Positions 8,561 to 64,000 are shown, numbered from the stretch's first letter. The stretch is 64,000 bases of DNA from Candidatus Latescibacterota bacterium (GCA_965243025.1 CBDETY010000003.1:1696001-1760000), one strand, 5' to 3'. Numbers and translations are program-made. Notes: a model not told the origin generated them from the letters alone.

Positions 8561-8564
8561 ACCG

Positions 8565-21201: not shown

Positions 21202-21209
21202 AAACGGGA

Positions 21210-29845: not shown

Positions 29846-29920
29846 TGGAGCGGGAGACGGGAATCGAACCCGCGACATCAAGCTTGGGAAGCTTGCGTTC
29901 TACCCCTGAACTACTCCCGC
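29846..29920 (-). tRNA. tRNA-Gly(CCC)
   Basis: GCGGGAGTAGTTCAGGGGTAGAACGCAAGCTTCCCAAGCTTGATGTCGCGGGTTCGATTCCCGTCTCCCGCTCCA. Confidence 0.96.
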
Positions 29921-30014
29921 TCCAGAAGAGGCTGTTCCTCCCGGGTCTCCTGCCTTCGTCGAGAACGCCTTCGGGTAGGTGCCAATTGAAGCCAACTATT
30001 TGTTGTTTAACAAG

Positions 30015-31061: not shown

Positions 31062-31093
31062 TACTCAGGACCCCCGGCAGGAAGGATTGAACC

Positions 31094-31132
31094 AAAAAAA
31101 CTCCTGCAATCAATCTCTGATCACAGGAGTTT
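31094..31132 (-). terminator. Intrinsic terminator after the tRNA cluster
   Basis: Minus strand AAACTCCTGTGATCA-GAGAT-TGATTGCAGGAG followed by T7. Confidence 0.8.
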
Positions 31133-31135
31133 GGA

Positions 31136-31213
31136 TGGTCGGGGTGGGCGGATTCGAACCGCCGACCCCCTGCTCCCGAAGCAGGTGCGCTAACCGGACT
31201 GCGCTACACCCCG
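31136..31213 (-). tRNA. tRNA-Pro(CGG)
   Basis: CGGGGTGTAGCGCAG...CCTGCTT-CGG-GAGCAGG...GTTCGAATCC...CCCCGACCA. Confidence 0.96.
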
Positions 31214-31307
31214 AAGCCGACCATGTGGGGACACCTGAATAGTAAATGGGCCACGAGCCACTAGCTCCCTGTCCAGGGAGATGACCCATGACCCATTTGT
31301 GGAAAGA

Positions 31308-31384
<77 letters not shown>

Positions 31385-31415
31385 ACGACCTGTCTACCTC
31401 ACGAAACGAGAAAAA

Positions 31416-31492
31416 TGGCGAGCTATACAGGATTCGAACCTGTGACCTCTAGCTCCGGAGGCTAGCGCTCTATCCAGCTGAGCTAATAGCTC
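31416..31492 (-). tRNA. tRNA-Arg(CCG)
   Basis: GAGCTATTAGCTCAGCTGGATAGAGCG-CTAGCCT-CCG-GAGCTAG...GTTCGAATCC...GCTCGCCA. Confidence 0.96.
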
Positions 31493-42656: not shown

Positions 42657-42681
42657 CCCGGACATATTCCCGGTCGGCTGC

Positions 42682-44061: not shown

Positions 44062-44254
44062 CAAGCCCCGGGTGATTTTTCGGGCGCTGGCGATCATCGA
44101 TTTCAGTGGTTATTATCTGCAAATACGGTTGCCGCTTTCCGTAGAACCACTCCGGACCGGGCTCCAGCCGGATGGTTTCCGCGATTGCCGAGCTGGCTTC
44201 CCGTATCTTCCCCCCTGCTTTTCGCTCTAAAGCCCACTCCCCCCGGATCGCCCG

Positions 44255-45682: not shown

Positions 45683-45698
45683 GCGGCCTTTTTTTTTT
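45665..45698 (+). terminator. Intrinsic terminator overlapping the purB stop codon
   Basis: AAAGGCCGCCT-TTTGT-AGGCGGCC followed by T10. Confidence 0.85.
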
Positions 45699-45737
45699 GC
45701 AGCACAACCAGTCGGGAACCAGGAGACTGCAAACCGG

Positions 45738-46481
45738 ATGAAATACGAACGGGTCTTGTTGAAGCTGAGCGGGCGGGCGGTTTCGGGAGCGCGGGAGTTC
45801 GGATTCTCTCCCGAGTCCCTGGAGCATATTGCCGACGAGGTTCTCGCCCTGCACGCAAGGGGGGTGCAGATCTCGATCGTCATCGGGGGCGGCAACATCT
45901 TCCACGGCCACCTCGCCGCCCAGTGGGGGATCGAGCGAGCCGAGGCGGACAACATCGGCATGATGGGGACCATCATCAACAGCCTGATGTTGCGAGGCGT
46001 CCTCAAAGGGCGCTCCAACTCGTCTGTCGAAGTCCGGGTCATGACCGCAATCCCCGTTAACACGGTCGCCGAACCGTTCATACGGCTGCGCGCAGTCCAC
46101 CACCTCGAAAAGGGCTACATCGTCATTTTCGCCGGCGGTACCGGCAACCCTTACGTCACTACCGATTACACCGCGGCGCAGCGAGCTCTCGAAACCCGTT
46201 GCGACGGTCTCCTCTTCGCCAAGAACAGGGCGCGCGGGATCTTCACCGCCGACCCGCGCGAAGATCCGTCCGCCCGCATGTATCGCCGCGTGAGCTACGG
46301 TACGATCCTGCGCAACAATCTCACCGTGGTCGACCAGCAGTCGGTCATCCTCGCCAGGGACCATCATCTGCCGTTTCACGTCTTCGACTTCGCCGAAAAG
46401 TCGACGATCGCCCGCCTCTGTTGCGGCGACACCGAGACCGGAACCTATGTAGGCGACGTCGGAGAGGACGAATTGGCCTGA
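45738..46481 (+). CDS. pyrH: UMP kinase family protein
   Basis: RVLLKLSG, GGGNIF, ADNIGM and FAGGTGNPYVTTD. Confidence 0.85.
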   Translation: MKYERVLLKLSGRAVSGAREFGFSPESLEHIADEVLALHARGVQISIVIGGGNIFHGHLAAQWGIERAEADNIGMMGTIINSLMLRGVLKGRSNSSVEVRVMTAIPVNTVAEPFIRLRAVHHLEKGYIVIFAGGTGNPYVTTDYTAAQRALETRCDGLLFAKNRARGIFTADPREDPSARMYRRVSYGTILRNNLTVVDQQSVILARDHHLPFHVFDFAEKSTIARLCCGDTETGTYVGDVGEDELA

Positions 46482-51415: not shown

Positions 51416-52969
51416 CTACCAGCGACCCCAGTCCTCCCTATAGTACTGCGCCAGAAGGGGCCGGTCCAGGCGGTTCGCCTCTACCTCCACCGGTGCCATG
51501 TCCGGTGGAAAAACCGTCATCGCCGGCAGCATCTCGGGCCGCAGGTAACGCGTAGGCACCGTCAGAGGCGCCTCCGCAAGGGGAGGCGCGGCCGCACCGG
51601 CGGCGAGGAAGAATCCCCATTCCCCCAGCGTCGGCACCGGAACGCGGTAAGGAACCGCTCGCAAACCCGCCTCCGCAAGGGATTTTCCGATGCTCCAGAA
51701 GGTCTTTCTGGTGAAATACGGACTGGTCGCCTGGGTCGCCAGCATACCTCCCCGGGCCAGGTGGCGGCGGAGAATCCGGTAGCCTTCGACCGAATACAGC
51801 TTGCCAAGCGAATCGATCCGGGGATCGGGAAGGTCGACGATGATGACCCCGTAGGGGATCAGATCCTGCTGGATGAACCGGAAGGCATCCTCGTTCAGGA
51901 TGCGGACCTCGGGGCGGTTCAGGGAATTTCGGTTGAGGTCCGTCATGCGCACGTCGCGGCGGGCGAGGTCGGTCACCGCCTCGTCCATGTCGACGAGATC
52001 GACCGCGACGACATCGGGATACTTCAACACTTCGCGCGCCGAAAGGCCGTCTCCGCCGCCAATTATCAGCACCCTGTCCCGGCTGCCGGCGAGGGACATC
52101 GCCGGATGGACGAGGGCTTCGTGGTAGCGGTACTCGTCGCTCGACGAGAATTGCAGATGTCCGTCGAGGAACAGGCTGATCTCCTCCTTCCACTGCGTCA
52201 GCACCACTCTCTGGTACGGTGATTGGGCGCTGTAGACGATGCGGTCGCTGTAGAGATTGCTTTCCCAGCGCTCGCGCAGTGCCTCGGCGCGCAGCAAAAG
52301 ACCGCCGAGAACGGCGCCGAACAGGACGGACTGCAGCGCGAGCAGGCGCACCCGTCCCCCGTTCAGCACACCCCGGAAGGCGACCAGCAGCACCACCCCG
52401 ATACCGACGTTTATCCCCCCGGTGACGAGGGCGGTATCGAAGGTCCCGAGAAGCGGCAGCAGCAGGTAGGGAAAAAGAAGGGCGGCGATCAGCGACCCGA
52501 TGTAGTCGAGAGACAACAGGTCGGCCAGCACCTGCCTCAGGGTTCCGTACTGACGAAGGATGCGCGCCAGCAGGGGCAGCTCGAGCCCGACCAGGCCCCC
52601 GATAACCAGGATGAAGAGGATCATCCAGTAGCGGTACTGCCCCGAGTACGAGTAAACCGCGTACAGGGCCGGGACCGAACACCCCCCGGCCAGCCCGAGC
52701 CAGAGCTCGATGGATATGAATTTTGTAATCAGGTCGCGCTTGCAAAGCCTTGAGATCCAAGAGCCTGCCCCCATCGCGGCCAGAAAGAAGCCGATTGTAA
52801 GAGAAAACTGTTCGACACTGTCGCCGAGGAAGTAGGAGGAGATGGTGCCTATGAGGAGCTCGTAGATGATCGCGCAGCCCGCCGCGGCGAAAATCGAGGC
52901 GAGCAGCAGCGCGACCCCCAGGCGGGATGCACCGGGGTCGGTGGAGCCGGGGACCGCCTCGTCAGGCAC
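51416..52969 (-). CDS. speE: Membrane-bound polyamine aminopropyltransferase (spermidine synthase-like)
   Basis: About 7 N-terminal TM segments, then SPYQ, LFLDGHLQFSS.DEYRYHEALVHP, GGGDG and IIVDLPDP. Confidence 0.9.
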   Translation of the reverse strand: MPDEAVPGSTDPGASRLGVALLLASIFAAAGCAIIYELLIGTISSYFLGDSVEQFSLTIGFFLAAMGAGSWISRLCKRDLITKFISIELWLGLAGGCSVPALYAVYSYSGQYRYWMILFILVIGGLVGLELPLLARILRQYGTLRQVLADLLSLDYIGSLIAALLFPYLLLPLLGTFDTALVTGGINVGIGVVLLVAFRGVLNGGRVRLLALQSVLFGAVLGGLLLRAEALRERWESNLYSDRIVYSAQSPYQRVVLTQWKEEISLFLDGHLQFSSSDEYRYHEALVHPAMSLAGSRDRVLIIGGGDGLSAREVLKYPDVVAVDLVDMDEAVTDLARRDVRMTDLNRNSLNRPEVRILNEDAFRFIQQDLIPYGVIIVDLPDPRIDSLGKLYSVEGYRILRRHLARGGMLATQATSPYFTRKTFWSIGKSLAEAGLRAVPYRVPVPTLGEWGFFLAAGAAAPPLAEAPLTVPTRYLRPEMLPAMTVFPPDMAPVEVEANRLDRPLLAQYYREDWGRW

Positions 52970-54638
52970 GCGTCAATCCTTTCAGGGAGCTCTCGCAGGG
53001 GATATCGAGAAGATCGAGACACTCTTCCGCCGCGCGAAGGCCGTGAAATACAGCCTCTTCGAACAGGGGAAGCCCCGACACGTCGCAGGTTGCAAAGGAA
53101 ACGGCACCGCAACGGAGCTGCCTGAGTTCGAGGTCGTTTCCCCACATGACGCCGGGTTCCGGTCTCACCATGGCGTGGCCCCACAGGTAGAGGTCGAGGC
53201 GCTCGACGAGGTCCTCGAGTCCGGGGTGAGCGGCGGTCAGGTCGGACATCACCGCGTCTGCCCAGAACCGGTGAGACCGCTTCAGCAGGGCATGCCGGGC
53301 CACTTCCGGATCGCTGGCGAAGGGCAGGTAGTAAACCAGGGTCCTTCCCCGCTGCGACACCGACCCCTGATGGCCGGCGTCGAGATAGCCGACGGACGGA
53401 CCATCGTACAGGACGTTGTCCCATGCGAACCGATCCGGCGACAGGTCTCCGCCACCCCCCTTTTTCAAATGCAGGGCAGCGACCAGCCAGGGAGAGTAAC
53501 GCAACCGCGACATGGCCAGGCGCTGCCCAGCTGGCAGTTCCCGAACGACGAACGGAGCGGTGTGCAGCTTGCCGGCATAGACGACGGAGCGGGCACGAAC
53601 CCGGTAGCGCCGTCCTGAAACCAGGTCGATACAGGCAAGCTCCGCCCCTTCGGGGGCCGGGCCGATGGCAACCACAGCGGTGAGTGTGCGCCGTTCTTCG
53701 GGAAGCATCCGGCCCGCCAGCGCCTCGGTCAGGTAACCGTTTCCCTGTTCCCAGGTCAGGGTGTCGCTGGGATACTGCTCGGAGACCCGCCGGTCGTAGA
53801 GCCTGCAGGCGAAGTAATGGATCCCCGCCCAGGCCGAGACATCCCGGCCGAGACAGCCGTAGTCATCCCGGCAACAGTAATCCACCAGCCATCGCAGCGG
53901 CGCAGCCGTCCACTTCCGGCTTTCCATGTAGTCGGCCATCGATATCCGGTCCAGGCCGCGAACCTTCGAATCGGCGGTGCTGTAGGCGGCCGGCATGGCG
54001 AAACCCCGGCGTCCGTCGGCGCCCGCCAGAATCGTCCAGCGCAGCATGTCGTCCTCGAACTCCCGCCACTGCTCCACCGCTTTCGAACCGGCGTTGCGGA
54101 ACGGATCGAGCCCTTCTTCCCAGTCCCCGTCGAGGAAGAGCCGCTCCCGGGGGTGTTTTACGAGGTGGTCGGGATTGACGCGCGGCCTTCCGGATGCGTC
54201 GTACCCGGTGATGACCCCGATGTCGGCGAGCAGCTCGTGGATGCAGTCCGCCTCTGCCGGAGGAACGTTGATGTAGTGGGCGCCCCACGGAAATGCGCGG
54301 CCGTTTGCCGATCCCGATATCGAGGTTCCACCGGTCCGCGACTCGAGCTCGAACAGGCAGAGCCTGCCGACTCCGGCGGCCTTGAGCTTCCAGGCCGCCG
54401 CAAGTCCCGAGACACCCCCGCCGGCGATGGCTGTATCGAGGACCGGCTCGGCGGCTGCCGGGAATTCCTCGAGCACATGCCGGGAGCGCAGCAGGTGCCC
54501 CCGTTCCGCCGAGCTGCCGTTGACGATCTCTCCGGGGATACCGAAGGAGCGGTTCGGCCTGTCTCCGGCGCCTCCGCAGCCGAGGGCCAGGCCACCTGCA
54601 AAGGCCCGCAGAAAGGCCCTCCGCGTCAGAGGTCTCAT
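52962..54638 (-). CDS. Tat-signal FAD-dependent (amine-oxidase-like) oxidoreductase
   Basis: LTRRAFL, GGGVSGLAAA, PWGAHY, YCCRDDYG, WAGIHYFA, WGHAM and LFEEA. Confidence 0.87.
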   Translation of the reverse strand: MRPLTRRAFLRAFAGGLALGCGGAGDRPNRSFGIPGEIVNGSSAERGHLLRSRHVLEEFPAAAEPVLDTAIAGGGVSGLAAAWKLKAAGVGRLCLFELESRTGGTSISGSANGRAFPWGAHYINVPPAEADCIHELLADIGVITGYDASGRPRVNPDHLVKHPRERLFLDGDWEEGLDPFRNAGSKAVEQWREFEDDMLRWTILAGADGRRGFAMPAAYSTADSKVRGLDRISMADYMESRKWTAAPLRWLVDYCCRDDYGCLGRDVSAWAGIHYFACRLYDRRVSEQYPSDTLTWEQGNGYLTEALAGRMLPEERRTLTAVVAIGPAPEGAELACIDLVSGRRYRVRARSVVYAGKLHTAPFVVRELPAGQRLAMSRLRYSPWLVAALHLKKGGGGDLSPDRFAWDNVLYDGPSVGYLDAGHQGSVSQRGRTLVYYLPFASDPEVARHALLKRSHRFWADAVMSDLTAAHPGLEDLVERLDLYLWGHAMVRPEPGVMWGNDLELRQLRCGAVSFATCDVSGLPLFEEAVFHGLRAAEECLDLLDIPCESSLKGLTRA

Positions 54639-54750
54639 GTGAGGTGACGGAAAAGAACGCCGGGCGGGACGTCATCCCGATGCGAGGGCGCCCGGCAGTG
54701 GAGAAGAACCCGCGATGTTACGGGGGGAGCAGGCCCTGCCGGTCGCGGGG

Positions 54751-55458
54751 CTACGACATCCCCATCTTCGACTTGAGCTGGGCCAACGAGTCGGTGGCCT
54801 TGGAGGAGGACTGCCCGGCCAGAGCCTTGTCGATCTCGTCGTCGACCGAGCGCGAGGAATCTGCCATCTCCCCGTACGCTTCGGCCAGCGACTCCTGCTC
54901 GTCAACTTTTTCCTTCATGCGTTCGAGCAGGGCAACCGTGCCGCGGGAATCGACGTTTGCCAGCCTCTGGTTGATCTTCCGGGTCGCGTCCGCGGTCTTG
55001 GCGCGCGCCTTGAGCGTTGCCAGGTCGTTTTCGTACGAGGCGAGCTTCGACTTCAGCTCGTTCACATTGGCCTGGATCTTGTCGACCATGGCGTGCTGGG
55101 CCTGGGACTGCCGGGTCGACTCGAGAGCGCGGGTGGTTCCCTCCTCCTTGCGGGTCAGGGCCTCGGTGGCGAGACGCTCTGCATCGGCCATTTCCATATC
55201 GCCGGACTGCGCCCTCTGCAGCAGCAGCATCGCCTTGCGCTCGTAGTCGCCGGCGAGCCGTTTTGCATCTTCGGCCTCCTTGTCCATACGGATTGCCAGG
55301 GCCTTGACCTCGGCAAGGCTCTTGAGGCTGTCGGCGAGATCGTTCTTGAGGTCCCGGACCGCCTGCTCGCTGATCTTGATGGGATCTTCGAGCTTGTCGA
55401 CAAGGGCGTGCGCTTCGGCCTGTCCGGTCTTGAACAGACGTTGAAAAATACCGGCCAT
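54751..55458 (-). CDS. PspA/IM30 family protein
   Basis: MAGIFQRL..., DKLEDP, long coiled coil, ERMKEKV and LAQLKSKMG. Confidence 0.92.
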   Translation of the reverse strand: MAGIFQRLFKTGQAEAHALVDKLEDPIKISEQAVRDLKNDLADSLKSLAEVKALAIRMDKEAEDAKRLAGDYERKAMLLLQRAQSGDMEMADAERLATEALTRKEEGTTRALESTRQSQAQHAMVDKIQANVNELKSKLASYENDLATLKARAKTADATRKINQRLANVDSRGTVALLERMKEKVDEQESLAEAYGEMADSSRSVDDEIDKALAGQSSSKATDSLAQLKSKMGMS

Positions 55459-55478
55459 GAGTTCCTGCTCCTTCCGTT

Positions 55479-55895
55479 CTAGGCTTTGGGCGCCGACTGT
55501 TCCGCGAAGCTCAGAAGCTCTTCCCCGTTCTCGGCAAGGCCGAGGCTGAGAGCGTTGATGGTGGTTTCGAGCTCGCTGAGGTCGAGGGTGTCGAGGGCAA
55601 GGGTGTTCCGGTACAAAAGGGTATCGGCGGCATCGTTGAGGACGAAGGCTCCGAAAACCAGTTCGCGGTTCATCTGCAGAATCCGCCGGTACATTTCCGC
55701 CCCGGCTCCGGAATCGACCTTCATGATCAACTGCTCGAGCACGAGCACCGACTCTTCGCAGTCGATGACGAGATTGTGAATCCCGCGCTCGTGGTCGTTG
55801 ATGAGGACGATCTCCTCCTCGGGGATTTCCTCGTCGATTTCGAAACCCAGCTCGAGGACGTATTCCTTGACCATGTCAAAGCGCTCCGACATCAC
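55479..55895 (-). CDS. YbjN/CesT-like chaperone-fold protein
   Basis: Acidic 138-aa protein with LQMNRELVFGAFVL...LLYRNTL.L.TLD..ELE; upstream of pspA. Confidence 0.72.
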   Translation of the reverse strand: MMSERFDMVKEYVLELGFEIDEEIPEEEIVLINDHERGIHNLVIDCEESVLVLEQLIMKVDSGAGAEMYRRILQMNRELVFGAFVLNDAADTLLYRNTLALDTLDLSELETTINALSLGLAENGEELLSFAEQSAPKA

Positions 55896-56257
55896 TGCTC
55901 CTTTTCCCGGTTTGACAGCGCCGTTTCCAGCTCCCTGTAGGCGCGGGTGAGTCGCGCCGTCAGCTCGTCGGCCGTGCGGCGCTTCTCCTCGTCCCGGGCG
56001 TGTCTGTCAGGGTGGTACTGCTTCATCATCCGGCGCCATGCAGCGCGCACGGTCTCCAGGTCCGACCCGTACGGCAATTCGAGGTTCGCGTAATACTCGG
56101 CCAGGGCCGGGTCGACATCGGACCGCCGGCTCCCCGGCTCTTCCCGGGGACCGTTTCCCCGTCCGAATTCTCCCGCCTCAAAACGGGGTGTCTCACCGCG
56201 CAGGCGATCGTAAAGCCGCGAGCGGCCGATTTCAATGAGGCGGCGGAAAAGGTCCAT
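55892..56257 (-). CDS. Small J-domain (DnaJ-like) protein
   Basis: YYANLEL...VRAAWRRMMKQYHPDRH...LTRAY. Confidence 0.88.
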   Translation of the reverse strand: MDLFRRLIEIGRSRLYDRLRGETPRFEAGEFGRGNGPREEPGSRRSDVDPALAEYYANLELPYGSDLETVRAAWRRMMKQYHPDRHARDEEKRRTADELTARLTRAYRELETALSNREKEQ

Positions 56258-56421
56258 GGCCCTGGGTGAGAACGAATCGAATATAGAAGTGCCCGTTCCC
56301 CTGGTCCATACGGGAACCGGACTGGTCTGCCCCCGGTCAGTCAGCCTGCGACCTGGGCCCCGAGCCGGGGATCAACGGAGGTGCAGGGGCGACCGATTCC
56401 GCGGATTTACCCGTGTCCATA

Positions 56422-59076
56422 CTAGTACGGCAGGGCCGACACTGCCTTGCTGATCATCGCCAGGGCGGCGCAGAACATGCCGATCAGCGCCATCCCTACC
56501 CCGAAGCCGACGCTCAGAACCATGGCGTAGCGGCGCCACTCCTGTTTGCCGTACCGCTTCCAGAAGTAGAAGCGCGCCATCAGGGCTCCGACGATCTGCG
56601 GCAGCAAAGAGTGAGGAATTCCGTTGACGCTCTGGACGTACCCCCAGATCAGGAAAATGGGCAGCCCGAGAAATGCCATGGTGAAGTAAGCGACAAGGCC
56701 GAAGCCGGCGGCGAACAGCGAGATCGGCCACTTCCGCCCGTCGAACGGATGGTGCATGTCGGACTCGTCCGTGATCCCGTCGCCGTCGTCGTCCAGTCCG
56801 TTCTTCAGCTCTTCGTCGATGAGCCCGTCGCCGTCGTTGTCGCGCCTGTCCCCGGTGAAGGTCATGTCGCGCCAGTGCGCCTCGAAAAGCAACGGGATGT
56901 CGGACGACCGCTGCAGGAACTCGCCATCGAATGAAGGCAGGCGGTCGACCTCGAAGTAGAACTCGACCGAATCCTGCGGGGCTTCGCTCAGGCGGGCATC
57001 GAAGTTCGGGTTCGGCGTGTCGATGATGTCCCCCGGACGGGGCCAGACAATCCCGGGGGCAGACGGCTGCGCAGACGATGATTCGGAGGGAGGTGAACGG
57101 GGTGGTAACAATCCCAGGTGAGGCGCCTGGGGAGCATCGGGAGCTCCCCTGCCGCTGAAATCGGTGTAGAAATAGCCGGTCTGCGACCACTCGCCGTAAC
57201 GGCGCTTGTCCGGGTCGGGGATATGGACGTCGTACGAGGCGCGCACCCTCCAGTACCACCAGTGCTTGTCCTGCAGGTTGTGCGGACTCCATACGACCTG
57301 ACCTCGCGAGATGGCAGTGCCATCCGAGAGGATCTCCCCGGCTCGCCAGCTGCGGCTGTACATCGTGCTGGAGAAAAACAGGGCCTGTTGGTACGCCTTG
57401 AGGGGCCACATCAATTGGGCATAGGGGTATCGTTCCGAGGGGATCGGGCCGAGCCGCCACAGCATGCTCCAGTACATCATGCTGACCACGAGGATGATGG
57501 GGAGCATGAACAGCTCGGCCTTGAGCAGGCTGGTGAAACGCATCCCGGTCAGCTCGACCACCCGGAACCCCTCGGCGTGGCCGCCGTAGTTCCGCGTCGG
57601 AAACGGCACGAACCAGACATCTACCCCGCGGTACCCGGTAAGAAAGATGACCGCCTCGTTGACATAGGGAATGGAGACTTCGCGGCCGATCATGCCGTCG
57701 AGTCGGGCGCTGACGAACGACATGATCGGGGCGTACACGAAGGCGATGCAGAAGAAGGTGAGGAGCAGCCCGGTGGTGACCAGCGTGGGAAACAGGGTCT
57801 TGGCGAGCACGATCGGGTAGAAAGCGGCGAGCCCGAAAAGCACGAGGCAGAGCCAGATGTTGAAGTCGCCGCGGCCGAGGTGGGTAAGGCAGTAGCCGCG
57901 CACCTCGGAGGGCCGGTTGCAGCCGTCGTGCCGGCAGGTTCTCGGGTACTCTTTGCGCTCGCCGATGACCCTTTCCCGAGCCTCGGCGCGCTGGCGGCGG
58001 CCGCTGGCCAGGAGGTTGTAGAAACTGATGACGGTGACCGCGAGAGTGATTCCGACGGAGAAGGCCTGCCAGAAATCGATGCTGGTGGCGATCTGGGTGT
58101 TGATCGTCGTCATCCCAGGGGCCCAGCTCGGAAGCAGTCCTTTCCAGTAGAGGAAGGGGCTGACCACGGTGTGCACGATGACCCCGGAGAATGAGCCGAT
58201 AACCGCCCAGAAAGGCATCAGCAGGCCGGCGAAGATCGGACCGAGATGGAGAGTGATACCGAGCGGGGTGGCCGGCAGCAGACTCCCGAAAAACGGGGTC
58301 AGATCCCAGAACGGGATCGGGATCACCTGGATCCTTGAACCCATCGCCGCGGTTACCTCGGGGATCCCTACGTACACCGAGCCGAAGATCCCGCCGATGA
58401 CACCCCCGATGCTGAAAACCGGCCACTTCCAGGTCTCGGCCTCGTCGCCGCTCTCCTCGGCGAGGGCCATGGCCGACAGGGCGGACATCGGCGCAGTCGG
58501 AAACGGCAGTTGCTCCCGGTCCGACATCAGCCGGAACAGCAGGTACCCGGAGGTGAACCAGGAAATGCGGCCGACGATGGTGCCGATGATGAGGAGGCCG
58601 ATCGGCCACAACCAGTCCGGGTGCAGGAAAGTGCGCTCGGCGAGGGCGACCGAGTCGGGAGGCGGCGCCCACCACGTCGGCAGGAGCCTGGAGATGCCGA
58701 ACTGTTCCGCCTCGGCGGAGCGCACGAAGTACTGGCGCCACAGCAGGTCGAGAAAAGCCCCTTCCTCGCGCGCCACCAGGGCGCTGGCCACGTACACGAG
58801 CAGGAAGATCTCCTGCCTCTTCAGGGACGTGAAGGAACGCTTTGCGACCTCGAGAAAGAGGATGACCGTGACCCACTGAGCGGCATCCCCTATTCCCCCA
58901 CCGGTAACGAGGCCGAGGTACATCTCCCCCGGTGTCATGATCAGGGAGATGAAGAGAACCCCGATGATCGTCCGGATCGTGAAGCCGTCCTCGAACTTGT
59001 CGGGAGCTTCGAGGAGCGCGCGGTACTCCTCTACCTCCTGCCACTGATTCTGCTTGAGTTTGCGCCTGAATTTCAT
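56422..59076 (-). CDS. OPT-superfamily-like polytopic transporter with inserted domains
   Basis: FEDGFT.RT, AAQWVTVILF.E, L.RQE and E.LPFP.AP, with many TM segments. Start overlaps the stop of the upstream FtsX-fusion gene (ATGA). Confidence 0.72.
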   Translation of the reverse strand: MKFRRKLKQNQWQEVEEYRALLEAPDKFEDGFTIRTIIGVLFISLIMTPGEMYLGLVTGGGIGDAAQWVTVILFLEVAKRSFTSLKRQEIFLLVYVASALVAREEGAFLDLLWRQYFVRSAEAEQFGISRLLPTWWAPPPDSVALAERTFLHPDWLWPIGLLIIGTIVGRISWFTSGYLLFRLMSDREQLPFPTAPMSALSAMALAEESGDEAETWKWPVFSIGGVIGGIFGSVYVGIPEVTAAMGSRIQVIPIPFWDLTPFFGSLLPATPLGITLHLGPIFAGLLMPFWAVIGSFSGVIVHTVVSPFLYWKGLLPSWAPGMTTINTQIATSIDFWQAFSVGITLAVTVISFYNLLASGRRQRAEARERVIGERKEYPRTCRHDGCNRPSEVRGYCLTHLGRGDFNIWLCLVLFGLAAFYPIVLAKTLFPTLVTTGLLLTFFCIAFVYAPIMSFVSARLDGMIGREVSIPYVNEAVIFLTGYRGVDVWFVPFPTRNYGGHAEGFRVVELTGMRFTSLLKAELFMLPIILVVSMMYWSMLWRLGPIPSERYPYAQLMWPLKAYQQALFFSSTMYSRSWRAGEILSDGTAISRGQVVWSPHNLQDKHWWYWRVRASYDVHIPDPDKRRYGEWSQTGYFYTDFSGRGAPDAPQAPHLGLLPPRSPPSESSSAQPSAPGIVWPRPGDIIDTPNPNFDARLSEAPQDSVEFYFEVDRLPSFDGEFLQRSSDIPLLFEAHWRDMTFTGDRRDNDGDGLIDEELKNGLDDDGDGITDESDMHHPFDGRKWPISLFAAGFGLVAYFTMAFLGLPIFLIWGYVQSVNGIPHSLLPQIVGALMARFYFWKRYGKQEWRRYAMVLSVGFGVGMALIGMFCAALAMISKAVSALPY

Positions 59077-62000
59077 GCCGCAGGTATGGGCGAGGCGAGC
59101 ATGGCCTCGGCCTTTTCCCGGTGATAGGCGCGCGCGTCCGCCCGGAGGGTATGCCAGAGGAGGAACTGCTTGCGCAGGGTGTTCATGAAGCGCTGGTTGA
59201 CCCGCTGCCAGTAGGTATCCTGGCCGCTCAGCCGCTGAATGAACACTTCCACCATGTAGATGCCGCTGCCGTCGGCGGCGGGAAGGAAGTCGAGCTGCAG
59301 GTACTGGCTGACCCCCATGTCGAACGGGGCGAGCCAGGTGAGCATCTGCAGCGAGTACTGCGGAGCACCGGGCGTCTGCTCTTCACTGACGAGGGTGACC
59401 TTTTCCGCATAGAAGTCGCCGATCGATTCCTCCTTGTAGGCGTCGAAGAAGTTGCCCAGGAAACCGCAGATTCCCACAACCTCCCCGGAGCTGACCATGA
59501 ACGGGAACTCGAACTCCCAGCGGTCTCCCGTGGGCCGGGGAGGCTTCCACCGTCTCACCAGATCCGGAACTGCTGCCCGCGACGCCACCCGGGCCGGATA
59601 TACCGTCGAGGCGAGGACAACCGCCATGACCACGGCTGCGGAGGCGACCGCAGCGTACGAAGAGTAGTTGAGGTTGACCCCGGCGGAGAGGTGGAAAGTG
59701 ACGATCGCCTTCCCGAGGGTCTGGCCGAGAAGGTACCCCATGGTGACTCCGATCACTGCGTACACGCAGGCCTCTGCAATGAAGAGGAGGGCGATGTGCA
59801 TCGGCGCCAGCCCGACGGCGGAGTAGATGTCGATTTCGCGGAAGCGCTCGTACACCGCCCCCATCATGGCGTTGAGAACGATCAGCCCGGCGATCAGCAT
59901 CGGAATCACCAGCGCCTGGAACCCTTCGACCGCGGTAAGCCCCACGGAGGTGTACGAGGCGACCGCAATGCGGTCGGTTTCCGGGTCGCGCGTCCCCGCG
60001 AACAGCGTCATCGGAGTCTGGGTGATGAACCCTTCGATCATCCCCCGGATGTCGCCGCCGGGTTCGAAACGCATGGCCACGGACCGCAGCTCTCCTCCCG
60101 CACCGCGCAGCGTCTCGAAAGGCAGGATGACCACGTTGTCCGGGTGCAGGTGCACGAAGGCCCTGGTCTCCTCTTCCCTTTCCGAGGTGTCCTCGACCTG
60201 CTGCGGCCGGGAGCCCATCAGCTCGGCAGAGGAGCGGTGAAAATCGACGGGAGTCAGCGGTTCGTCGTCGAGGTCGTGCAGGGCGAAAAAGGCATCGGCA
60301 TCGAACAGTCCCCGCACTCGCAGCATGGTCCCGAGGACGCGCACGCTGTCCCCGGGAACAAGCGCCGCATCGACACCGAGAATCTCGGCCATCTCGAGGG
60401 AGAGCAGGCAGCTTTTTTCATCCGGGGAATCGAAAAAATCTCCAGCGGCCAGGGCGGTGTGAACGCCCGTTACTCCCCGTTCCTGCGGGGACAGGCCGAG
60501 CAGGGCCGTCGACAGCGAGGAGCCTTCTCCATGGCTGATCCGGATGTACCCCTTCTCCTCGGACTGGGCGATGTACCAGTTGCGGGGGGAAAGAACGGCG
60601 CGCTCGCCGAAGTAGGACCTCGCCGCCTCCATCTTCCACCTTCCGATCCAGTCCCAGTTGTGGTGCCGGATCAGGGCCCCTTCGTAGGCCCCCTCATGCC
60701 GGTGTGAGAAGGCGAAAAACTGGACGTCCGGCTTGAAGGAGGAGAACGACAGGACCGTGAAGGTCAGCAGGGTGATCGTGCCCAGGGTCAGGCTCGTCCG
60801 CAGCTTGCGACGGCGCATGTTGGAAATTCCGAGCATGAAGGCGGTGTAGGCGGCGCTGAACCGGCTTATGTCGGTCTGGTGCACTCTCGCCTGCTCGGCG
60901 CGGTATTCCCGGAGGTAGCGGTTGAAGCGGGTCACGACCATGAGCAGGACGAAAACCGCCATCGCCATGATCGCGAAGGCGAGCAGGACGACCAGGGGGT
61001 GGGCGATCGCGAAGGCGGGATGGACCTGGGAAATTATCGCCCAGATCACTATGAGGACGGCGACGAAACCGGTCAACTGCATGCGGATATCCGGCGATGC
61101 CAGGACCAGCCGCTCGGTGAAGAAGGCTGCGGGAATCACCAGAGCCAGAAAAAACACCATCCCCTTGATCACGTCGTTGAGGGTACCGATCACCTCCGGA
61201 TAGGCCCGGAAGATCATTCCCCCCGCTTCGCGTATGTCCCTTGTGTAGTCGTCCCAGCGGTGCTCGGCCATGGCAGCCTCCGCACGCTGCAGCAAGCGGC
61301 GCCCGTTCTGCTGGAACCGGGAAACGCTGTGGTTCTCGATGGCGTGCTTGCGCATCGTGTGCAGGCGCGCTTCGTTGAGGCGCATCATGTCGCGAATCAC
61401 GTAGAACTCCGTCGGAGTCAGGGTGTCGCGTCTGAAGTGGTAGCCGATCCCCCGGGCGGTGCTCTCGTCATTGCCGCCCGGGCTGTTCAGAAGATAGCGG
61501 GCACCTCCGAAGGTTCCGGCCATGACTTTGAGACCGTCGGTCTGCTCCGGAAGGTCGCGGTCGGCGTAGACCAGGGCTGCAAAACCGCTGCGGGAGTACC
61601 CGAACTGCCTCGGGGCGCGGCCGCTCCGGTCGAGAATCTTGAAGCTGTCGGAGCTCCCCCCCAGGCCGAACAGCCTGCCGGGGACGCAGGGAAACAGGAC
61701 CAGGGTCTTCTCGTCCGCCGTCCACCGCGTCACCCATGGAATCTTCCCGCTGAACCCCGGTTCTCCCGCGAACTTCTGCGCTCTCTCACTCAGGTCCGGG
61801 GCAAACAGGACCTGCCCTGTCTCCCTGTCGAGAACGAAGGCGGAAACACCGGTGGTGTACCCGACCACCAGGCCATGCAACGTCACGTCCCCGTCCTCGT
61901 TCGTCAGGTAGTACCGTTCCTGGTGGACTCCCTTGTCGACGAGGTCGTACCCTTCGCTGACCACGGCCTGGGGCACGGGGCGGTTCGGCATCTGCGCCCG

Positions 62001-63503
62001 CCTCGGGAAGGAGCGCACCTTGACCTGATGGGTGCGCAGGTTGTCCCGGAGAACGGGATCGAACTCATCGAGATTCTCCAGCAGCTCCGGATCGTCGAAA
62101 GCCAGGGACAGGATGCCGTTGAGAAACCGGATCTGGGCGGCGAGCTGTCCGAAGCGGACCTCCCCGGCCCGGTCGAGGGGACTGTTGAGGGAGAGCCTGG
62201 CGTCGTGGGTGGTGACGAAACTGAGGGCGAGCTGCCCGGCTTCCATCGCCACCTTTCCGCTCGCGGGCACTCCCCCGGGGGCCAGCGTAGACCAGTCGAT
62301 CCCCTTGATCGGGCTGATGCCGTTGGCGAAGGCGGCGGTTGGCTCTCTCCCCTGAACTGAAGCAACTTCCTTCGCGTACCGGGTGAATCGGCGCGAGAAC
62401 GGAACGAACAGCCGCTTGAGTTCGAACCGGTCCGAGTTGTTCCAGACGGCGACCTGGTCTGTCCGCGAGCTCAGGTCGAGACTGATGAAGAGATCGACTT
62501 CGAGCGGCTCTTCCATCCACCTGGCGTACTCCTCGTTCTTTCTCGCGTGGCGGTTGAGGAAATCGATCATGCCGCGTTGCCCCTGGAAGTGGGCACCCGT
62601 CGCGGACAGAATCACCGTGCGGGCCGGCGGGTTCGATTGCAGGTGCCGCGCAAGCTCCAGGAGGGCGACGATGCTGCAGGAGGTCTCCGCCGAAGGAGCG
62701 AGGGCGGGAACGATCGAAATCCCGTCGTAGTAGGCGTCGACTACTATGGTCTGGTCCCGCAGTTCCGGGTCCGACCCGACCACCTTGCCCCGGATGTTCC
62801 AGGCCGGCTGCTCGCGCCAGTCCATGCGGCTGTGGACAACCACGGAAACCGGGTCCCCGCCGGCGACCCGGCGGCGAAGTTTCAGTCCTGACTCCCGGTC
62901 GATCCAGAACCGGGGAATGTCCAGGGGAACACTGGCGACCTTGTCGAGGGTTTGCAGGTACCCGGTATCCTCAGGCTCGATGAAGATGAAGGCGCGGGCT
63001 CCGAACCGGGCTGCCCGAGTCCACAGGTCCCAGCTGTTGAATTCCATGAGCACGGCGCTGCCGTTGAGTGGAAGTCCCTCGAAGTCGGCGTACTCCCCCC
63101 ATCCCCCGTACACCAGCGGCAGCTCGATTCCTTCCGGGGGTGTCGTGGTGGTACGCACGTGATTCGGCCACAGGCCGAAAACCGGAAAGACCTCGCCGGA
63201 GCCGGAAAGCACCAGCCGGCTTCCTTCCTCGACCGGAACCGCTACCCTGTACTGCTCCCGGCGCATGTCGACGCAGCCGTTGCGGCGCAGCCCCTCCTCG
63301 ATATACGAAGCGGCGCGCGCGTTGCCGGGGTATCCGGTTACCCGGGAACCCGATGCGAGGGTGTGGACCGCTGCTTCGACACGAGCGGTGAGATCGGGAG
63401 CCTCAGCCGGCTGGGAATCCTGGGAGGCACCGGCGGCGGAGACGGCCACTGCTGCCGCCATGAGGGCGGTGCGGCGGTAGGAGGGCAACTTGATTGGGGG
63501 CAT
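59073..63503 (-). CDS. Giant M28-peptidase-like/PA + FtsX(MacB)-type permease fusion
   Basis: Signal peptide, SRVTGYPG, PA-like insert and M28-like core. FtsX/MacB motifs NMRRRKLRT.LT and VYERFREI.IYSAVGL.P..I..LF.AEA. Start set at ATG 63503. Confidence 0.8.
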   Translation of the reverse strand: MPPIKLPSYRRTALMAAAVAVSAAGASQDSQPAEAPDLTARVEAAVHTLASGSRVTGYPGNARAASYIEEGLRRNGCVDMRREQYRVAVPVEEGSRLVLSGSGEVFPVFGLWPNHVRTTTTPPEGIELPLVYGGWGEYADFEGLPLNGSAVLMEFNSWDLWTRAARFGARAFIFIEPEDTGYLQTLDKVASVPLDIPRFWIDRESGLKLRRRVAGGDPVSVVVHSRMDWREQPAWNIRGKVVGSDPELRDQTIVVDAYYDGISIVPALAPSAETSCSIVALLELARHLQSNPPARTVILSATGAHFQGQRGMIDFLNRHARKNEEYARWMEEPLEVDLFISLDLSSRTDQVAVWNNSDRFELKRLFVPFSRRFTRYAKEVASVQGREPTAAFANGISPIKGIDWSTLAPGGVPASGKVAMEAGQLALSFVTTHDARLSLNSPLDRAGEVRFGQLAAQIRFLNGILSLAFDDPELLENLDEFDPVLRDNLRTHQVKVRSFPRRAQMPNRPVPQAVVSEGYDLVDKGVHQERYYLTNEDGDVTLHGLVVGYTTGVSAFVLDRETGQVLFAPDLSERAQKFAGEPGFSGKIPWVTRWTADEKTLVLFPCVPGRLFGLGGSSDSFKILDRSGRAPRQFGYSRSGFAALVYADRDLPEQTDGLKVMAGTFGGARYLLNSPGGNDESTARGIGYHFRRDTLTPTEFYVIRDMMRLNEARLHTMRKHAIENHSVSRFQQNGRRLLQRAEAAMAEHRWDDYTRDIREAGGMIFRAYPEVIGTLNDVIKGMVFFLALVIPAAFFTERLVLASPDIRMQLTGFVAVLIVIWAIISQVHPAFAIAHPLVVLLAFAIMAMAVFVLLMVVTRFNRYLREYRAEQARVHQTDISRFSAAYTAFMLGISNMRRRKLRTSLTLGTITLLTFTVLSFSSFKPDVQFFAFSHRHEGAYEGALIRHHNWDWIGRWKMEAARSYFGERAVLSPRNWYIAQSEEKGYIRISHGEGSSLSTALLGLSPQERGVTGVHTALAAGDFFDSPDEKSCLLSLEMAEILGVDAALVPGDSVRVLGTMLRVRGLFDADAFFALHDLDDEPLTPVDFHRSSAELMGSRPQQVEDTSEREEETRAFVHLHPDNVVILPFETLRGAGGELRSVAMRFEPGGDIRGMIEGFITQTPMTLFAGTRDPETDRIAVASYTSVGLTAVEGFQALVIPMLIAGLIVLNAMMGAVYERFREIDIYSAVGLAPMHIALLFIAEACVYAVIGVTMGYLLGQTLGKAIVTFHLSAGVNLNYSSYAAVASAAVVMAVVLASTVYPARVASRAAVPDLVRRWKPPRPTGDRWEFEFPFMVSSGEVVGICGFLGNFFDAYKEESIGDFYAEKVTLVSEEQTPGAPQYSLQMLTWLAPFDMGVSQYLQLDFLPAADGSGIYMVEVFIQRLSGQDTYWQRVNQRFMNTLRKQFLLWHTLRADARAYHREKAEAMLASPIPAA

Positions 63504-63869
63504 CCGCAAGCCCGCCGGTCGGGGGGGTGCGATGGTTGAGAACAGCCCCTGGTTCGAGTTGGACGGGTGGGAACAGGAGCCAAGGTATTCCTTCGATAAA
63601 GATTGGGCAATCTGAATTTCGGGCGTTTCCGGGTTGAAACAGGTTTGACGTGTCATCGACCTTGCTGAACCAGCGATGCTCCCGCCATGCCCGTTCACTG
63701 CCCGCTGTGGATCTTGCCGGGTTGCGTCCCCGTGGCCGCCTGCTCACCCCGGTTGCCATCTCGGGCTCCGGTGCCGGATGGCACTTGCTTTTTCCTCTTC
63801 CCAGCTTCGTATTCGGACTCCCCCGGCAAGTCCCGGGCATCGGAACCCGATCGAGCAGGAGAACGGCCA

Positions 63870-64000
63870 ATGGGTGTCACCGACGGCAAACTGGAAAAGC
63901 GGTTTCTGCATCACGCCCGGCGGCTGATGCCGCTCCCGACGGCCCCGTTTCGCGAGCAGTTCGTGATGGAAGCGATCTCGCGCCAGGCAGCGGAGCTCGG
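63870..64000 (+). CDS. 5' part of a probable M20/M42-like metallohydrolase (partial)
   Basis: Manual translation MGVTDGKLEKRFLHHARRLMPLPTAPFREQFVMEAISRQAAEL..., with GGAG RBS. Confidence 0.5.
   Translation, partial: MGVTDGKLEKRFLHHARRLMPLPTAPFREQFVMEAISRQAAEL

Follow-up and report, generated by a model that had tools for sequence, protein, structure and literature searches.

A conserved Latescibacterota gene pair encoding a giant MacB/FtsX-like protein with a remodelled M28-like head and a divergent OPT-like protein

Introduction

Proteins of the MacB/FtsX fold (e.g. MacB, LolCDE, and FtsEX) have four FtsX helices, the first two of which (TM1 and TM2) are separated by a large periplasmic domain, and a coupling-helix motif. 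To our knowledge, all of those studied are thought to act by force transmitted from an ATPase; we know of no studied MacB-type protein that imports, as these expel or extract substrates or transmit force, and all require an ATPase. FtsX-type permeases without an adjacent ATPase gene are presumably represented by ADOP, the "duplicated orphan permeases" of Acidobacteria (TIGR03434), on which our literature search found no paper and surfaced only work on FtsEX. Among the carriers of the OPT/YSL superfamily (PF03169), those of the YSL type transport metal-nicotianamine. The barley member Yellow Stripe 1 (HvYS1) is described as a proton-coupled homodimer of the elevator type (PMC9691689). Two further groups are relevant here, i.e. 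the aminopeptidases in which a PA domain is set into an M28 fold (Aneurinibacillus 2ek8 and Bacillus YwaD, 6hc6), and the proteins with DUF6785 and DUF6784, to which Pfam assigns no function.

Here, we describe two adjacent genes, A and B, in a 64-kb window, by which we mean the whole stretch of Latescibacterota DNA that was analysed. Protein A resembles MacB, LolCDE, and FtsEX in its topology, periplasmic domain, and coupling-helix motif, with fold matches to MacB, LolC/E, YknZ, HrtB, and YbbP. Unlike them, it is without a fused or linked ATPase throughout the 80 loci. It is longer by ~770 N-terminal residues, which form the PA/M28-like head, the Ig-like domains, and the stalk; it also has three further TM helices and a cytoplasmic domain at its C terminus, and its constant genomic partner is an OPT-like carrier. 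Its FtsX part matches ADOP weakly (E = 0.0035; 15.5 bits), far under the family cut-off of 622 bits, and A is not duplicated and has other domains. Protein B shares the overall OPT/YSL fold, with a sequence link through intermediates that match Pfam OPT, but has only 13% identity to HvYS1, a CxHxxCx9CxxH cytoplasmic loop, a ~240-aa outer insert, and a MacB-like protein encoded alongside; in a sister family, fusion to a MacB-like protein occurs. The DUF6785/6784 proteins are profile relatives of B that share A as a partner and flank it in most loci, but they are without the zinc-finger-like loop and the large insert.

A preliminary description of the locus stated that such pairs have no assigned function. 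The literature agrees, as our search found no paper describing the A/B pair, none mentioning DUF6785 or DUF6784, and, for FtsX together with the OPT family, only one general transporter census. A and B are a conserved Latescibacterota pair built from known folds; the conserved three-gene order and the fusions reported below are new.

Results and discussion

Two overlapping genes

Open reading frames and translation place both genes on the minus strand at the positions originally proposed (Table 1). The TGA of A (59075-59073) overlaps the ATG of B (59076-59074), and this ATGA junction (59076-59073), noted in the preliminary description, makes the two translationally coupled. The reading frame of A is open as far as a GTG at 63698; we take the ATG at 63503 as its start because the lengths of homologs (1433-1512 aa) agree with it. 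Among the 120 matches listed, A homologs are 47-96% identical across 96-100% of the length. Rfam and tRNA scans gave no match within or beside the pair.

Table 1. Features of the A/B locus, with positions counted from the first nucleotide of the window.
Feature	Position	Strand	Basis
Gene A, giant PA/M28-like and MacB/FtsX-like membrane protein, 1476 aa	59073..63503	-	ORF, translation, homologs
A residues 1-26, putative signal peptide (RR, A/V-rich core, AGA|S)	63426..63503	-	Read by eye from translation
A residues ~30-480, PA and M28-like head with remodelled metal site	62064..63416	-	Family profile vs PDB, residue mapping, conservation
A residues 489-694, beta-rich (Ig/pilin-like) extracytoplasmic domains	61422..62039	-	AF2 model, weak Foldseek
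A residues 698-865, helical stalk into 3-TM block	60909..61412	-	Hydropathy, model helices, conservation
A residues 866-925, cytoplasmic linker with invariant GISNMRRRKLRT motif, then FtsX TM1	60729..60908	-	Invariant columns
A residues 926-1190, MacB-type periplasmic domain	59934..60728	-	Foldseek; homolog Pfam match
A residues 1191-1312, FtsX TM2-TM4 with E1219-R1220 coupling-helix motif	59568..59933	-	Pfam, MacB alignments, conservation
A residues 1313-1476, C-terminal cytoplasmic alpha/beta domain	59076..59567	-	AF2 model
Gene B, divergent OPT/YSL-fold membrane protein, 884 aa	56422..59076	-	Homologs, AF2, Foldseek, Pfam OPT via distant relatives
B residues 381-399, CxHxxCx9CxxH zinc-finger-like loop, positively charged (cytoplasmic)	57880..57936	-	Conservation
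B residues 545-782, extracytoplasmic beta-rich insert with acidic DxDxDG-type repeats	56731..57444	-	AF2 strands
Spacer between B and J-domain gene, 164 nt	56258..56421	-	Sequence
J-domain, CesT/YbjN-like, PspA, FAD amine oxidase, and membrane-fused spermidine synthase genes	51416..56257	-	Pfam, NCBIfam
M42-like peptidase ortholog, divergent upstream gene, start only	63870..64000	+	43 aa, 74% identical to L001 protein

The extracytoplasmic part of A

From the N terminus, A consists of a PA/M28-like head, Ig-like domains, a 3-TM block, a MacB-type periplasmic domain, the FtsX helices, and a C-terminal cytoplasmic domain. Pfam, PDB profiles, Foldseek, and an AF2 model uphold the domain calls of the preliminary description (PA + M28-like, TM block, MacB-like loop, FtsX, and C-terminal soluble domain). 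The signal-peptide region was unflagged by a hydropathy scan at a threshold of 1.6.

The head shows both the M28 fold and M28 sequence similarity, with the PA insertion. Specifically, the A family profile matches the PA+M28 aminopeptidases 2ek8 (1e-12) and YwaD (6hc6; 5e-10), with which it shares the PA-in-M28 arrangement, and the single sequence matches this group at 2e-4. PF04389 is found in 27 of the 120 A homologs listed, with no match at E ≤ 0.1 in A of the window itself. The head differs from these enzymes in its ligands, in a His that stands for the catalytic Glu, and in being tethered to a membrane machine. Residues of the metal site were mapped by alignment to 2ek8 and 2anp, and their conservation was scored over 71 sequences. 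Where M28 has the co-catalytic zinc ligands H, D, E, D, and H, the head of A has Y, E, F, D, and V; three of the five are replaced, the equivalents of H97, E152, and H256 being missing (these positions, like the set H-D-E-D-H plus Glu, follow what we take to be the numbering of the Vibrio enzyme). The position of the catalytic Glu holds H305 (57/58 sequences). The remodelled site further comprises Y259 (56/58), D260, E273 (58/58), F306 (54/57), D343 (64/67), and V430, a position that is hydrophobic in 70/70. Since three canonical ligands and the catalytic Glu are missing, normal M28-type aminopeptidase action is unlikely, which speaks against the processing role originally proposed, at least by this mechanism. 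The near-invariance of D260, E273, H305, and D343 suggests that the site is still at work and is no relic.

A non-catalytic role is conceivable by analogy with nicalin, an inactive M28-like protein of the eukaryotic multipass translocon, in which case A would be the scaffold of a complex for membrane-protein assembly or quality control. The loss of canonical catalytic residues fits such a role, and there are weak profile matches to nicalin (E = 0.03) and transferrin receptor (E = 0.45), but these are nonsignificant, no Sec/YidC component occurs in the neighbourhood, and the conservation of the four residues above points to a working site. We regard a nicalin-like scaffold as very improbable.

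Beyond the head, residues 489-694 are modelled with pLDDT mostly of 84-94. Weak Foldseek matches of A to pilins and SdrD (E 2e-3 to 1e-2) probably belong to this part, a placement that we made ourselves because the Foldseek output gives no matched query part.

The membrane part of A

The stalk and 3-TM segment (698-865) is the most conserved part of A, with E797, R798, H828, and P829 present in 71/71 sequences. Hydropathy places the three helices at residues 775-862, where the model of the membrane part has low confidence (pLDDT 52-65). The N-terminal GISNMRRRKLRT motif is invariant among 42 sequences, this motif being one of the two patterns with which the A family was retrieved. A MacB-fold periplasmic domain lies between TM1 and TM2, as seen from Foldseek matches to those of MacB, LolE, and YknZ (E 5e-6 to 6e-5; TMt, i.e. 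the TM-score normalised by target length, 0.43-0.56), and from PF12704 MacB_PCD matches in A homologs, P0129 among them. The FtsX helices match Pfam PF02687 at residues 1199-1309, scoring 43.4 bits (4e-11; cut-off 25.5), MacB chains are matched by sequence at 8e-6, and the coupling-helix residues E1219 and R1220 are found in 71/71 sequences.

The C-terminal alpha/beta domain spans residues 1328-1470 in the model (pLDDT about 76-90) and gave no Pfam match and no usable ESM Atlas match. Weak fold matches to SRPBCC/START-like proteins, PsbP, and pilotin (~2e-3 to 1e-2) may belong to it. We rejected this domain as a degenerate ATPase: it has ~150 aa, the Walker A pattern G....GK[ST] is absent from it in 71 sequences, and it shows no ABC fold match. 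When the 50 A proteins that have a B partner are compared with the 18 that do not, only 3 columns tell the two groups apart; 2 lie in the C-terminal domain, and the 3 are too few to place an A/B interface.

Protein B is a divergent OPT-like protein

The AF2 model of B (pLDDT 88.4, pTM 0.87) matches HvYS1 (7wst and 7wsr) in Foldseek with E values of 8e-7 and 2e-6, a probability of 1.00, and a TM-score on the target of 0.49-0.50 over about 570 columns; these chains are its only two PDB matches at E ≤ 1e-3. Pfam finds nothing in B at E ≤ 0.1, OPT (PF03169) included, but does find OPT in 7 of 18 distant B relatives scanned, in 6 of the 7 above the cut-off. With this fold and these relatives, we assign B to the OPT/YSL superfamily, as a divergent member, in line with the earlier OPT-like call. 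The B homologs among the matches listed are 66-99% identical; one source names a B homolog "OPT family protein", and the ESM Atlas returned only Latescibacterota clusters without a Pfam family, the nearest auto-named "Peptide transporter family protein".

Two features set B apart. The first is the CxHxxCx9CxxH loop, whose residues C381, H383, C386, C396, and H399 occur in 44/44 B proteins; it is mostly gapped in the wider family and weakly matches Pfam Zf_WRKY19 (E = 0.041, under the cut-off). From its pattern, this loop may bind zinc. The second is the outer insert, which is Ig-like with acidic repeats in B of the window (NCBIfam acidic-repeat match at 2.8e-4, under the cut-off; low pLDDT at 740-780) and consists elsewhere of PDZ domains or propeller (Reg_prop) repeats. 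PDZ domains occupy the insert in about a third of the B homologs listed.

A three-gene unit and its fusions

We found 266 relatives of A in species-representative genomes and kept 80 of these as loci. By title, the 80 belong to Latescibacterota (38), taxa beginning with Gemmatimonad (33), Acidobacteria (1), Handelsmanbacteria (1), or are called bacterium only (7), so that the occurrence in PVC, Armatimonadota, and archaea given in the preliminary description is unconfirmed in this set. Its claim that the two genes belong together elsewhere does hold, as B is immediately 3' of A in 49 of the 69 loci with downstream sequence.

In 59 of the 60 loci whose two flanks each span at least 1.5 kb, an OPT-like gene lies directly beside A on the same strand. 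Among these 60, 36 have DUF6785/6784 upstream and B downstream, 12 have DUF6785/6784 downstream only, 7 have B only, and 4 have DUF6785/6784 upstream only. The commonest order, i.e. DUF6785/DUF6784, A, B, is present in two deep clades. In addition, A is fused in frame to DUF6785/6784 in 9/70 full-length loci, and such fusions of ~2100 aa make up 7 of the 120 A homologs listed. A search for B-related proteins longer than 1547 aa found none, which is weak evidence. Genomes carry several A paralogs, and Latescibacterota have two to four paralogous copies of the module in each genome.

The DUF6785/6784 neighbours of A in other loci match both Pfam models (1e-80 to 1e-118 and 1e-16 to 1e-31), whereas B matches neither. 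A profile comparison by hhalign nevertheless relates the DUF6785/6784 proteins to the B family (probability 96.8%, E = 3e-10, 505 columns); when B was compared by BLASTP with P0202, a fused protein, nothing significant was returned, so that the kinship is visible at profile level only. Because B has this profile relation and no Pfam DUF match, we place it in a sister family and not within DUF6785/6784. For DUF6785 and DUF6784, this is a first fold-level placement (OPT-like) together with a genomic partner.

The unit thus differs from the two-gene one originally described: the pair is real and conserved, but the unit is ancestrally composed of DUF6785/6784, A, and B, and the window holds a reduced version, the upstream DUF6785/6784 gene having been lost there and in its closest relative. 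Gene order kept within one phylum may in part reflect common descent. The ATGA overlap, the adjacency in 59/60 loci, the in-frame fusions, and the relation of B to DUF6785/6784 together tie A to OPT-like proteins.

Absence of a linked ABC ATPase

Pfam found no ABC ATPase among 56 ORFs of the window, and an ABC motif scan of all six frames of the 64 kb found none. Of the 1029 ORFs that lie up to 10 kb from A in the 80 loci, a single one has both Walker A and the ABC signature; it belongs to one locus, where it is on the opposite strand and unlinked. The 35 recurrent neighbour families that were scanned include no ABC ATPase. A therefore has no cognate ATPase, fused or in the same operon, in the window or the 80 loci. 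The preliminary description had noted the missing adjacent ATPase at this locus; the observation stands, but the absence is a property of the whole family.

A may still be a normal type VII ABC permease, i.e. an ATP-driven mechanotransmission machine with accessory OPT-like subunits, whose ATPase is encoded elsewhere and perhaps common to all paralogs. ATP hydrolysis would then move its periplasmic domain and head, either for the expulsion or extraction of a substrate or so as to activate the head, in the way that FtsEX acts on cell-wall hydrolases. The fold and sequence of A match MacB, LolCDE, YknZ, HrtB, and YbbP, and both E1219-R1220 and the GISNMRRRKLRT motif are invariant; the invariant coupling-helix motif is easier to explain by an unseen ATPase than by a passive scaffold. 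Control of periplasmic hydrolases by FtsEX-type systems is also established. Against this stand the absence of ABC genes just described, the near-universal partnership with an OPT-like carrier, and the extra cytoplasmic domain after TM4, near what we take to be the ATPase contact site of MacB-type permeases. We consider an ATP-driven machine unlikely, although it is the most serious of the alternatives.

Alternatively, mechanotransmission could be free of ATP, with the proton-driven elevator movement of the OPT-like protein replacing the ABC ATPase. One or more OPT-like subunits would be docked or fused to the MacB-like protein, and the carrier would either drive the periplasmic MacB domain together with the rebuilt M28-like head or be gated by them. 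We judge this improbable; if true, a secondary carrier and a permease of type VII ABC fold would form a hybrid kind of transporter not yet described.

A possible capture-and-uptake complex

The explanation we prefer, though we hold it tentatively and give it somewhat less than an even chance, is that A and B, as the reduced form of the three-gene module, form a periplasmic capture-and-uptake complex for peptide-like substrates. The preliminary description had suggested peptide or glycopeptide transport, or mechanotransmission, and these functions are likewise inferred. A and B would be subunits of one inner-membrane complex, with A a permease of MacB/FtsX fold (type VII ABC-like) that has no ATPase of its own and whose periplasmic head carries a rebuilt di-zinc site, and B a carrier of OPT/YSL fold and proton-coupled type. 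Peptide-like substrates would be caught in the periplasm by the head of A together with the variable outer domain of the OPT-like subunit, which would then move them into the cell. The FtsX-like part would act as a dimeric scaffold and conformational coupler, possibly driven by an ATPase encoded elsewhere.

Several observations favour peptides as the substrate: the head of A is homologous to M28+PA aminopeptidases, B inserts contain PDZ domains, a gene family for a cytoplasmic M42-like peptidase lies divergently upstream of A in 25/80 loci and in the window, and both the named B homolog and the Atlas cluster point to peptide or OPT transport. We assume that the head binds peptides. Members of the OPT/YSL superfamily also transport metal chelates, glutathione, and folate, so the substrate is not necessarily a peptide. 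As for direction, several paralogs per genome are usual for uptake systems, and the paralogs of A therefore count in favour of uptake; that studied MacB-type proteins do not import counts against it. Latescibacteria are described as organisms that break down algal glycoproteins and are rich in peptidases and peptide uptake systems (PMC4454575). A physical complex of A with B is made less certain by fusions that involve the DUF6785/6784 paralog and not B, and by three loci (L056, L063, and L066) that have A without an OPT-like neighbour in the available sequence. A complex prediction with B 1-575 and A 1186-1476 scored 0.00 and gave no answer, which is evidence neither way.

The A family is present in several copies per genome, lacks a linked ATPase, and has an OPT-like secondary carrier as a constant and sometimes fused partner. 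If the two do form one complex, two cases follow: many permeases share one ATPase that is not linked to them, or an ABC-type fold has joined a proton-driven system. The family may be a major nutrient-uptake system of an uncultured, widespread phylum.

Polyamine genes, the PspA operon, and the divergent neighbour

The closest solved fold to B is that of HvYS1, an iron-phytosiderophore carrier, and genes for an FAD amine oxidase and a membrane-fused aminopropyltransferase follow the pair both in the window and in 17/40 loci. Together with the four invariant polar residues left at the former zinc site of the head, this would suit uptake or export of a metal chelate or polyamine-derived compound by A/B with the downstream polyamine genes. 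These genes, however, belong to a known PspA-CesT operon class found without A/B in other phyla (PMC11237479); they are missing in 23/40 A+B loci and in all 16 both-flank loci without B, and the recurrent neighbours include no chelator biosynthesis gene. We give a chelate or polyamine role a low probability.

The J-domain gene, first after B, starts at 56257. The preliminary description linked A/B to the PspA operon, and the 164-nt gap and shared strand are as it stated, with no terminator-like site in the spacer by a consensus scan. The same scan found a promoter-like site there (56308..56280), and the PspA-operon order is kept downstream in only 17 of the 40 A+B loci for which 6.5 kb or more of sequence follows, so that a functional tie to PspA appears weak. 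A/B could be an envelope-stress device, co-transcribed with PspA, that senses or repairs membrane damage, and PspA systems are often linked to transporters (PMC11237479). The same text mentions FtsX only for HAAS fusions and leaves OPT unmentioned, and PspA is absent near 23/40 A+B loci and near every A paired only with DUF6785/6784. We likewise give a stress device a low probability.

On the other side of A, the divergent gene at the edge of the window is called M42-like from its L001 counterpart, which matches Peptidase_M42 at 2.9e-16.

The A–B gene pair

An ORF check reproduces the coordinates and lengths given in the preliminary description for gene A, which encodes a giant PA/M28-like and MacB/FtsX-like membrane protein, and gene B, which encodes a divergent OPT/YSL-like membrane protein directly downstream. 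As claimed there, the end of A and the start of B have the four bases ATGA in common. The frame is still open upstream of A as far as a GTG at 63698; its ATG is the likely start, because A homologs measure 1433–1512 aa and their alignment begins at about residue 40. An 890-aa ORF that covers nearly all of B in this genome of 64% G+C is most likely spurious, since homologs and the structure model favor the frame of B.

Features of the A–B locus and its surroundings (nucleotide positions relative to the window; residues numbered in A)
Feature	Position	Strand	Length	Remarks
Gene A	ATG at 63503 to TGA at 59075–59073	minus	1476 aa	
Gene B	ATG at 59076–59074 to 56422	minus	884 aa	
ORF over B	56372–59044	minus	890 aa	other frame
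PspA operon	51416–56257	minus		
Spacer, A to M42-like peptidase gene	63504–63869		366 nt	
CitMHS/Na-sulfate-symporter-like and amino-acid-kinase-family genes	42502–46481	plus		about 10 kb from A–B
Four tRNA genes	29846–31492	minus		tRNA-Gly at 29846–29920, other three at 31136–31492
Tyrosine recombinase (phage integrase family) gene	11165–12094	minus		
Ribose-phosphate pyrophosphokinase paralogs	1385–2329, 3931–4869	plus		1.6 kb apart
Canonical His ligand	Y259			head
Canonical Asp ligand	E273			head
Catalytic Glu	H305			head
Canonical Glu ligand	F306			head
Canonical Asp ligand	D343			head, kept
Canonical His ligand	V430			head
Beta-rich domains	489–694			AlphaFold2 model
Long helices, then three-helix membrane block	775–862			block by hydropathy, helices in AlphaFold2 model
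FtsX TM1	between three-helix block and periplasmic domain			AlphaFold2 model
Periplasmic domain	924–1191			AlphaFold2 model
TM2–4	after periplasmic domain			AlphaFold2 model
FtsX (Pfam)	1199–1309			4e-11
Alpha/beta domain	1328–1470			AlphaFold2 model

A is a MacB-fold permease with a rebuilt M28-like head

FtsX is the sole Pfam domain in A, and NCBIfam adds nothing beyond weak similarity to MacB, ADOP, and LolC in that region. Against the PDB, a profile of 42 A-family members matches PA-domain M28 aminopeptidases (2ek8, 1e-12; YwaD, 5e-10) and next MacB, YtrF, LolC, and LolF (9e-9 to 1e-4). The AlphaFold2 model of residues 480–1476, built with 58 sequences, has a mean pLDDT of 73 and a pTM of 0.54, with confident soluble domains and poor membrane parts. 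Foldseek returns 32 PDB matches for it at E <= 1e-3, the ones listed being MacB, LolCDE, YknZ, HrtB, YbbP, and a MacB-like transporter from pneumococcus. Matches of lower significance (2e-3 to 1e-2) involve pilin/Ig-like proteins and folds of the START/SRPBCC-like, PsbP, and pilotin types; we assign these tentatively to the modeled beta-rich and C-terminal domains. Taken together, profiles, Foldseek, and model agree with the earlier reading of an M28-like head, TM block, MacB-like loop, and FtsX.

The metal site of the head (the periplasmic PA/M28-like N-terminal part) was mapped by alignment to 2ek8 and the Vibrio-type 2anp, which gives the positions of the canonical zinc ligands and catalytic Glu listed in the table. 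The replacements are nearly fixed in a 71-sequence alignment (Y259 in 56/58, E273 in 58/58, H305 in 57/58, F306 in 54/57), position 430 is hydrophobic in 70/70, and D343 is kept in 64/67; rows missing from these counts are sequences with an incomplete extracted N-terminus. The head thus departs from standard M28 enzymes; however, the conservation of four polar residues where the zinc site used to be (D260, E273, H305, and D343) is too strong for a dead relic.

Conservation in A peaks in the three-helix block, with E797, R798, H828, and P829 present in 71/71 sequences, and E1219 and R1220 of the FtsX coupling helix are invariant in the same alignment. None of the 71 A-family sequences contains a Walker A motif.

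The family lacks a linked ABC ATPase

No ABC ATPase turned up anywhere in the 64-kb window, either among 56 ORFs searched with Pfam or by scanning the six frames for motifs; this extends to the whole length the earlier claim that none is adjacent. Apart from A and B, 41 representatives stand for the neighbor families that recur in four or more of 80 related loci. None of the 35 scanned is an ABC ATPase; the other six are five families already seen in the PspA operon of the window and an antisense ORF within A. Walker A plus ABC signature occurs in 1 of 1029 ORFs from the 80 loci, on the opposite strand about 6 kb away. Thus, the absence of a linked ATPase is a property of the A family. Characterized MacB-type systems are ATP-dependent exporters or force transmitters; that A is a mechanotransmission machine served by an unlinked ATPase fits its conserved coupling motifs, and we consider it somewhat unlikely.

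B is an OPT-like membrane protein

By sequence, B matches nothing in Pfam or the PDB. Among 1.84 billion cluster representatives searched, 938 relatives are found at E <= 1e-3, and Pfam OPT is found in 7 of 18 scanned (above cut-off in 6, top 64 bits). The AlphaFold2 model of B (88 sequences) is confident (pLDDT 88.4, pTM 0.87), and its sole PDB fold matches at E <= 1e-3 are two structures of barley Yellow Stripe 1, HvYS1 (8e-7 and 2e-6; TM-score about 0.5 on target). Because its relatives match OPT and its fold matches HvYS1, the label "OPT-like" is supported at superfamily level; at family level it fails, B itself falling below the OPT model.

A CxHxxCx9CxxH loop is invariant in 44/44 B proteins from related loci and mostly missing from the wider family. 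B also has an insert of about 240 residues, beta-rich with acidic repeats; in other B proteins this region bears PDZ domains or Reg_prop repeats. Charge distribution and helix count suggest that the loop lies inside and the insert outside.

Gene order around A

The scan, with one genome per species, found 266 A relatives, of which the best 80 loci were analyzed. Their labels are Latescibacterota (38), names beginning Gemmatimonad (33), Acidobacteria (1), and Handelsmanbacteria (1), with seven lacking a phylum label. Near-identical loci carry conflicting labels, Gemmatimonadaceae vs Latescibacterota (L015/L018; L027/L053; L069 vs L068 and L070), so the phylum labels of these records are unreliable. 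Two to four A paralogs occur within single assemblies.

For the 60 loci that have 1.5 kb or more on each side of A, adjacency was assessed by tblastn and ORF analysis. A gene with Pfam DUF6785 and DUF6784 lies upstream and B downstream of A in 36; a DUF6785/6784 gene lies only downstream in 12 and only upstream in 4, B alone is downstream in 7 (the window's arrangement), and 1 (L066) has no OPT-like neighbor. The pair hence recurs elsewhere, as the 36 and 7 loci attest. A and DUF6785/6784 share a single reading frame in 9/70 full-length loci, and 7 fusions of about 2100 aa are among 120 A homologs listed. These neighbors match both Pfam models strongly and align with the B family by profile–profile comparison (96.8%, E 3e-10, 505 columns); therefore, A normally stands between two OPT-like paralogs that have diverged from each other. 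In a midpoint-rooted FastTree tree of 71 A sequences, its topology taken without regard to support values, the three-gene order occurs in two deep clades and other arrangements are nested or sister, which suggests that this order is ancestral.

Neither the window nor L001, its 90%-identical relative, has the upstream DUF6785/6784 gene, which in 25 loci stands between a divergent M42-like peptidase gene and A. In the window this peptidase gene starts 366 nt from A; most related loci have a DUF6785/6784 gene of roughly 2.1 kb there (L003–L033, about 7800–9950). The window and L001 have just the 366-nt spacer at this place, so this lineage has lost or relocated the gene. In L036 and L024, one A–B pair is accompanied by three or four DUF6785/6784 genes (in L036 at 4057–6000, 7879–9891, 17143–19287, and 19308–21467), a sign that the OPT-like partner has expanded locally. 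Members of the same families as the window's symporter-like and kinase-family genes directly follow A–B in relatives without the PspA operon (L003, 18914–20355; L006, 20015–23897), so rearrangement has taken place around the pair.

The downstream PspA operon

The next gene begins at 56257, leaving the 164 nt to the PspA operon that had been described. The operon encodes a J-domain protein, a CesT/YbjN-like protein, PspA, an FAD amine oxidase, and a membrane-fused (7TM) spermidine synthase, and fits the CesT-PspA-aminopropyltransferase class described across bacteria in PMC11237479; relatives' operons add DUF350 and DUF4178 genes, as in that paper. Its text does not mention "DnaJ"; the J-domain and amine oxidase genes of the window's operon seem to be lineage-specific additions. 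Of the 40 loci with enough sequence downstream, 17 have PspA after A–B; it never follows A paralogs without B. By consensus matches only, the 164-nt gap holds a promoter-like and no terminator-like site. We read the operon as a neighboring one, into which read-through from A–B is possible and not required; a PspA-linked function for the pair is quite improbable.

A possible role in peptide uptake

The folds of A and B are each known; a literature search found no description of their assembly or of DUF6785/6784. What is established is a MacB-fold permease without linked ATPase, a rebuilt M28-like head, and an OPT-fold partner whose gene is translationally coupled to A in the window, lies next to A in almost every locus, and in a sister form is fused to it. 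We tentatively favor, at somewhat less than even confidence, a periplasmic capture-and-uptake complex for peptide-like substrates. Specifically, A and B would bind each other, the head and the carrier's variable outer domain would capture substrates, the FtsX part would act as scaffold or coupler, and the OPT-like subunit would import using the proton gradient, by analogy with HvYS1 (proton-gradient driven; PMC9691689). The boldest reading compatible with the data, and an improbable one, is a proton-driven hybrid in which the carrier would take the ATPase's place. The peptide theme is drawn from the aminopeptidase ancestry of the head, the PDZ domains in many B orthologs, the adjoining M42-like peptidase gene, and the Latescibacteria lifestyle as described in PMC4454575.

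Against uptake stand the conserved coupling motifs of A and the ATP-dependent export or force transmission of its studied relatives. OPT/YSL members also carry non-peptide substrates, which counts against the peptide theme; we nonetheless consider a chelate or polyamine system improbable, and the reading of A as a non-catalytic scaffold highly improbable.

Other features of the window

Between the pyrophosphokinase paralogs lies a 383-aa ORF on the opposite strand with no Pfam match. The tRNA genes are Gly-CCC, Pro-CGG, Pro-GGG, and Arg-CCG; three cluster beside an HU-like gene and tRNA-Gly stands apart. The tyrosine recombinase gene adjoins leuS among housekeeping genes.
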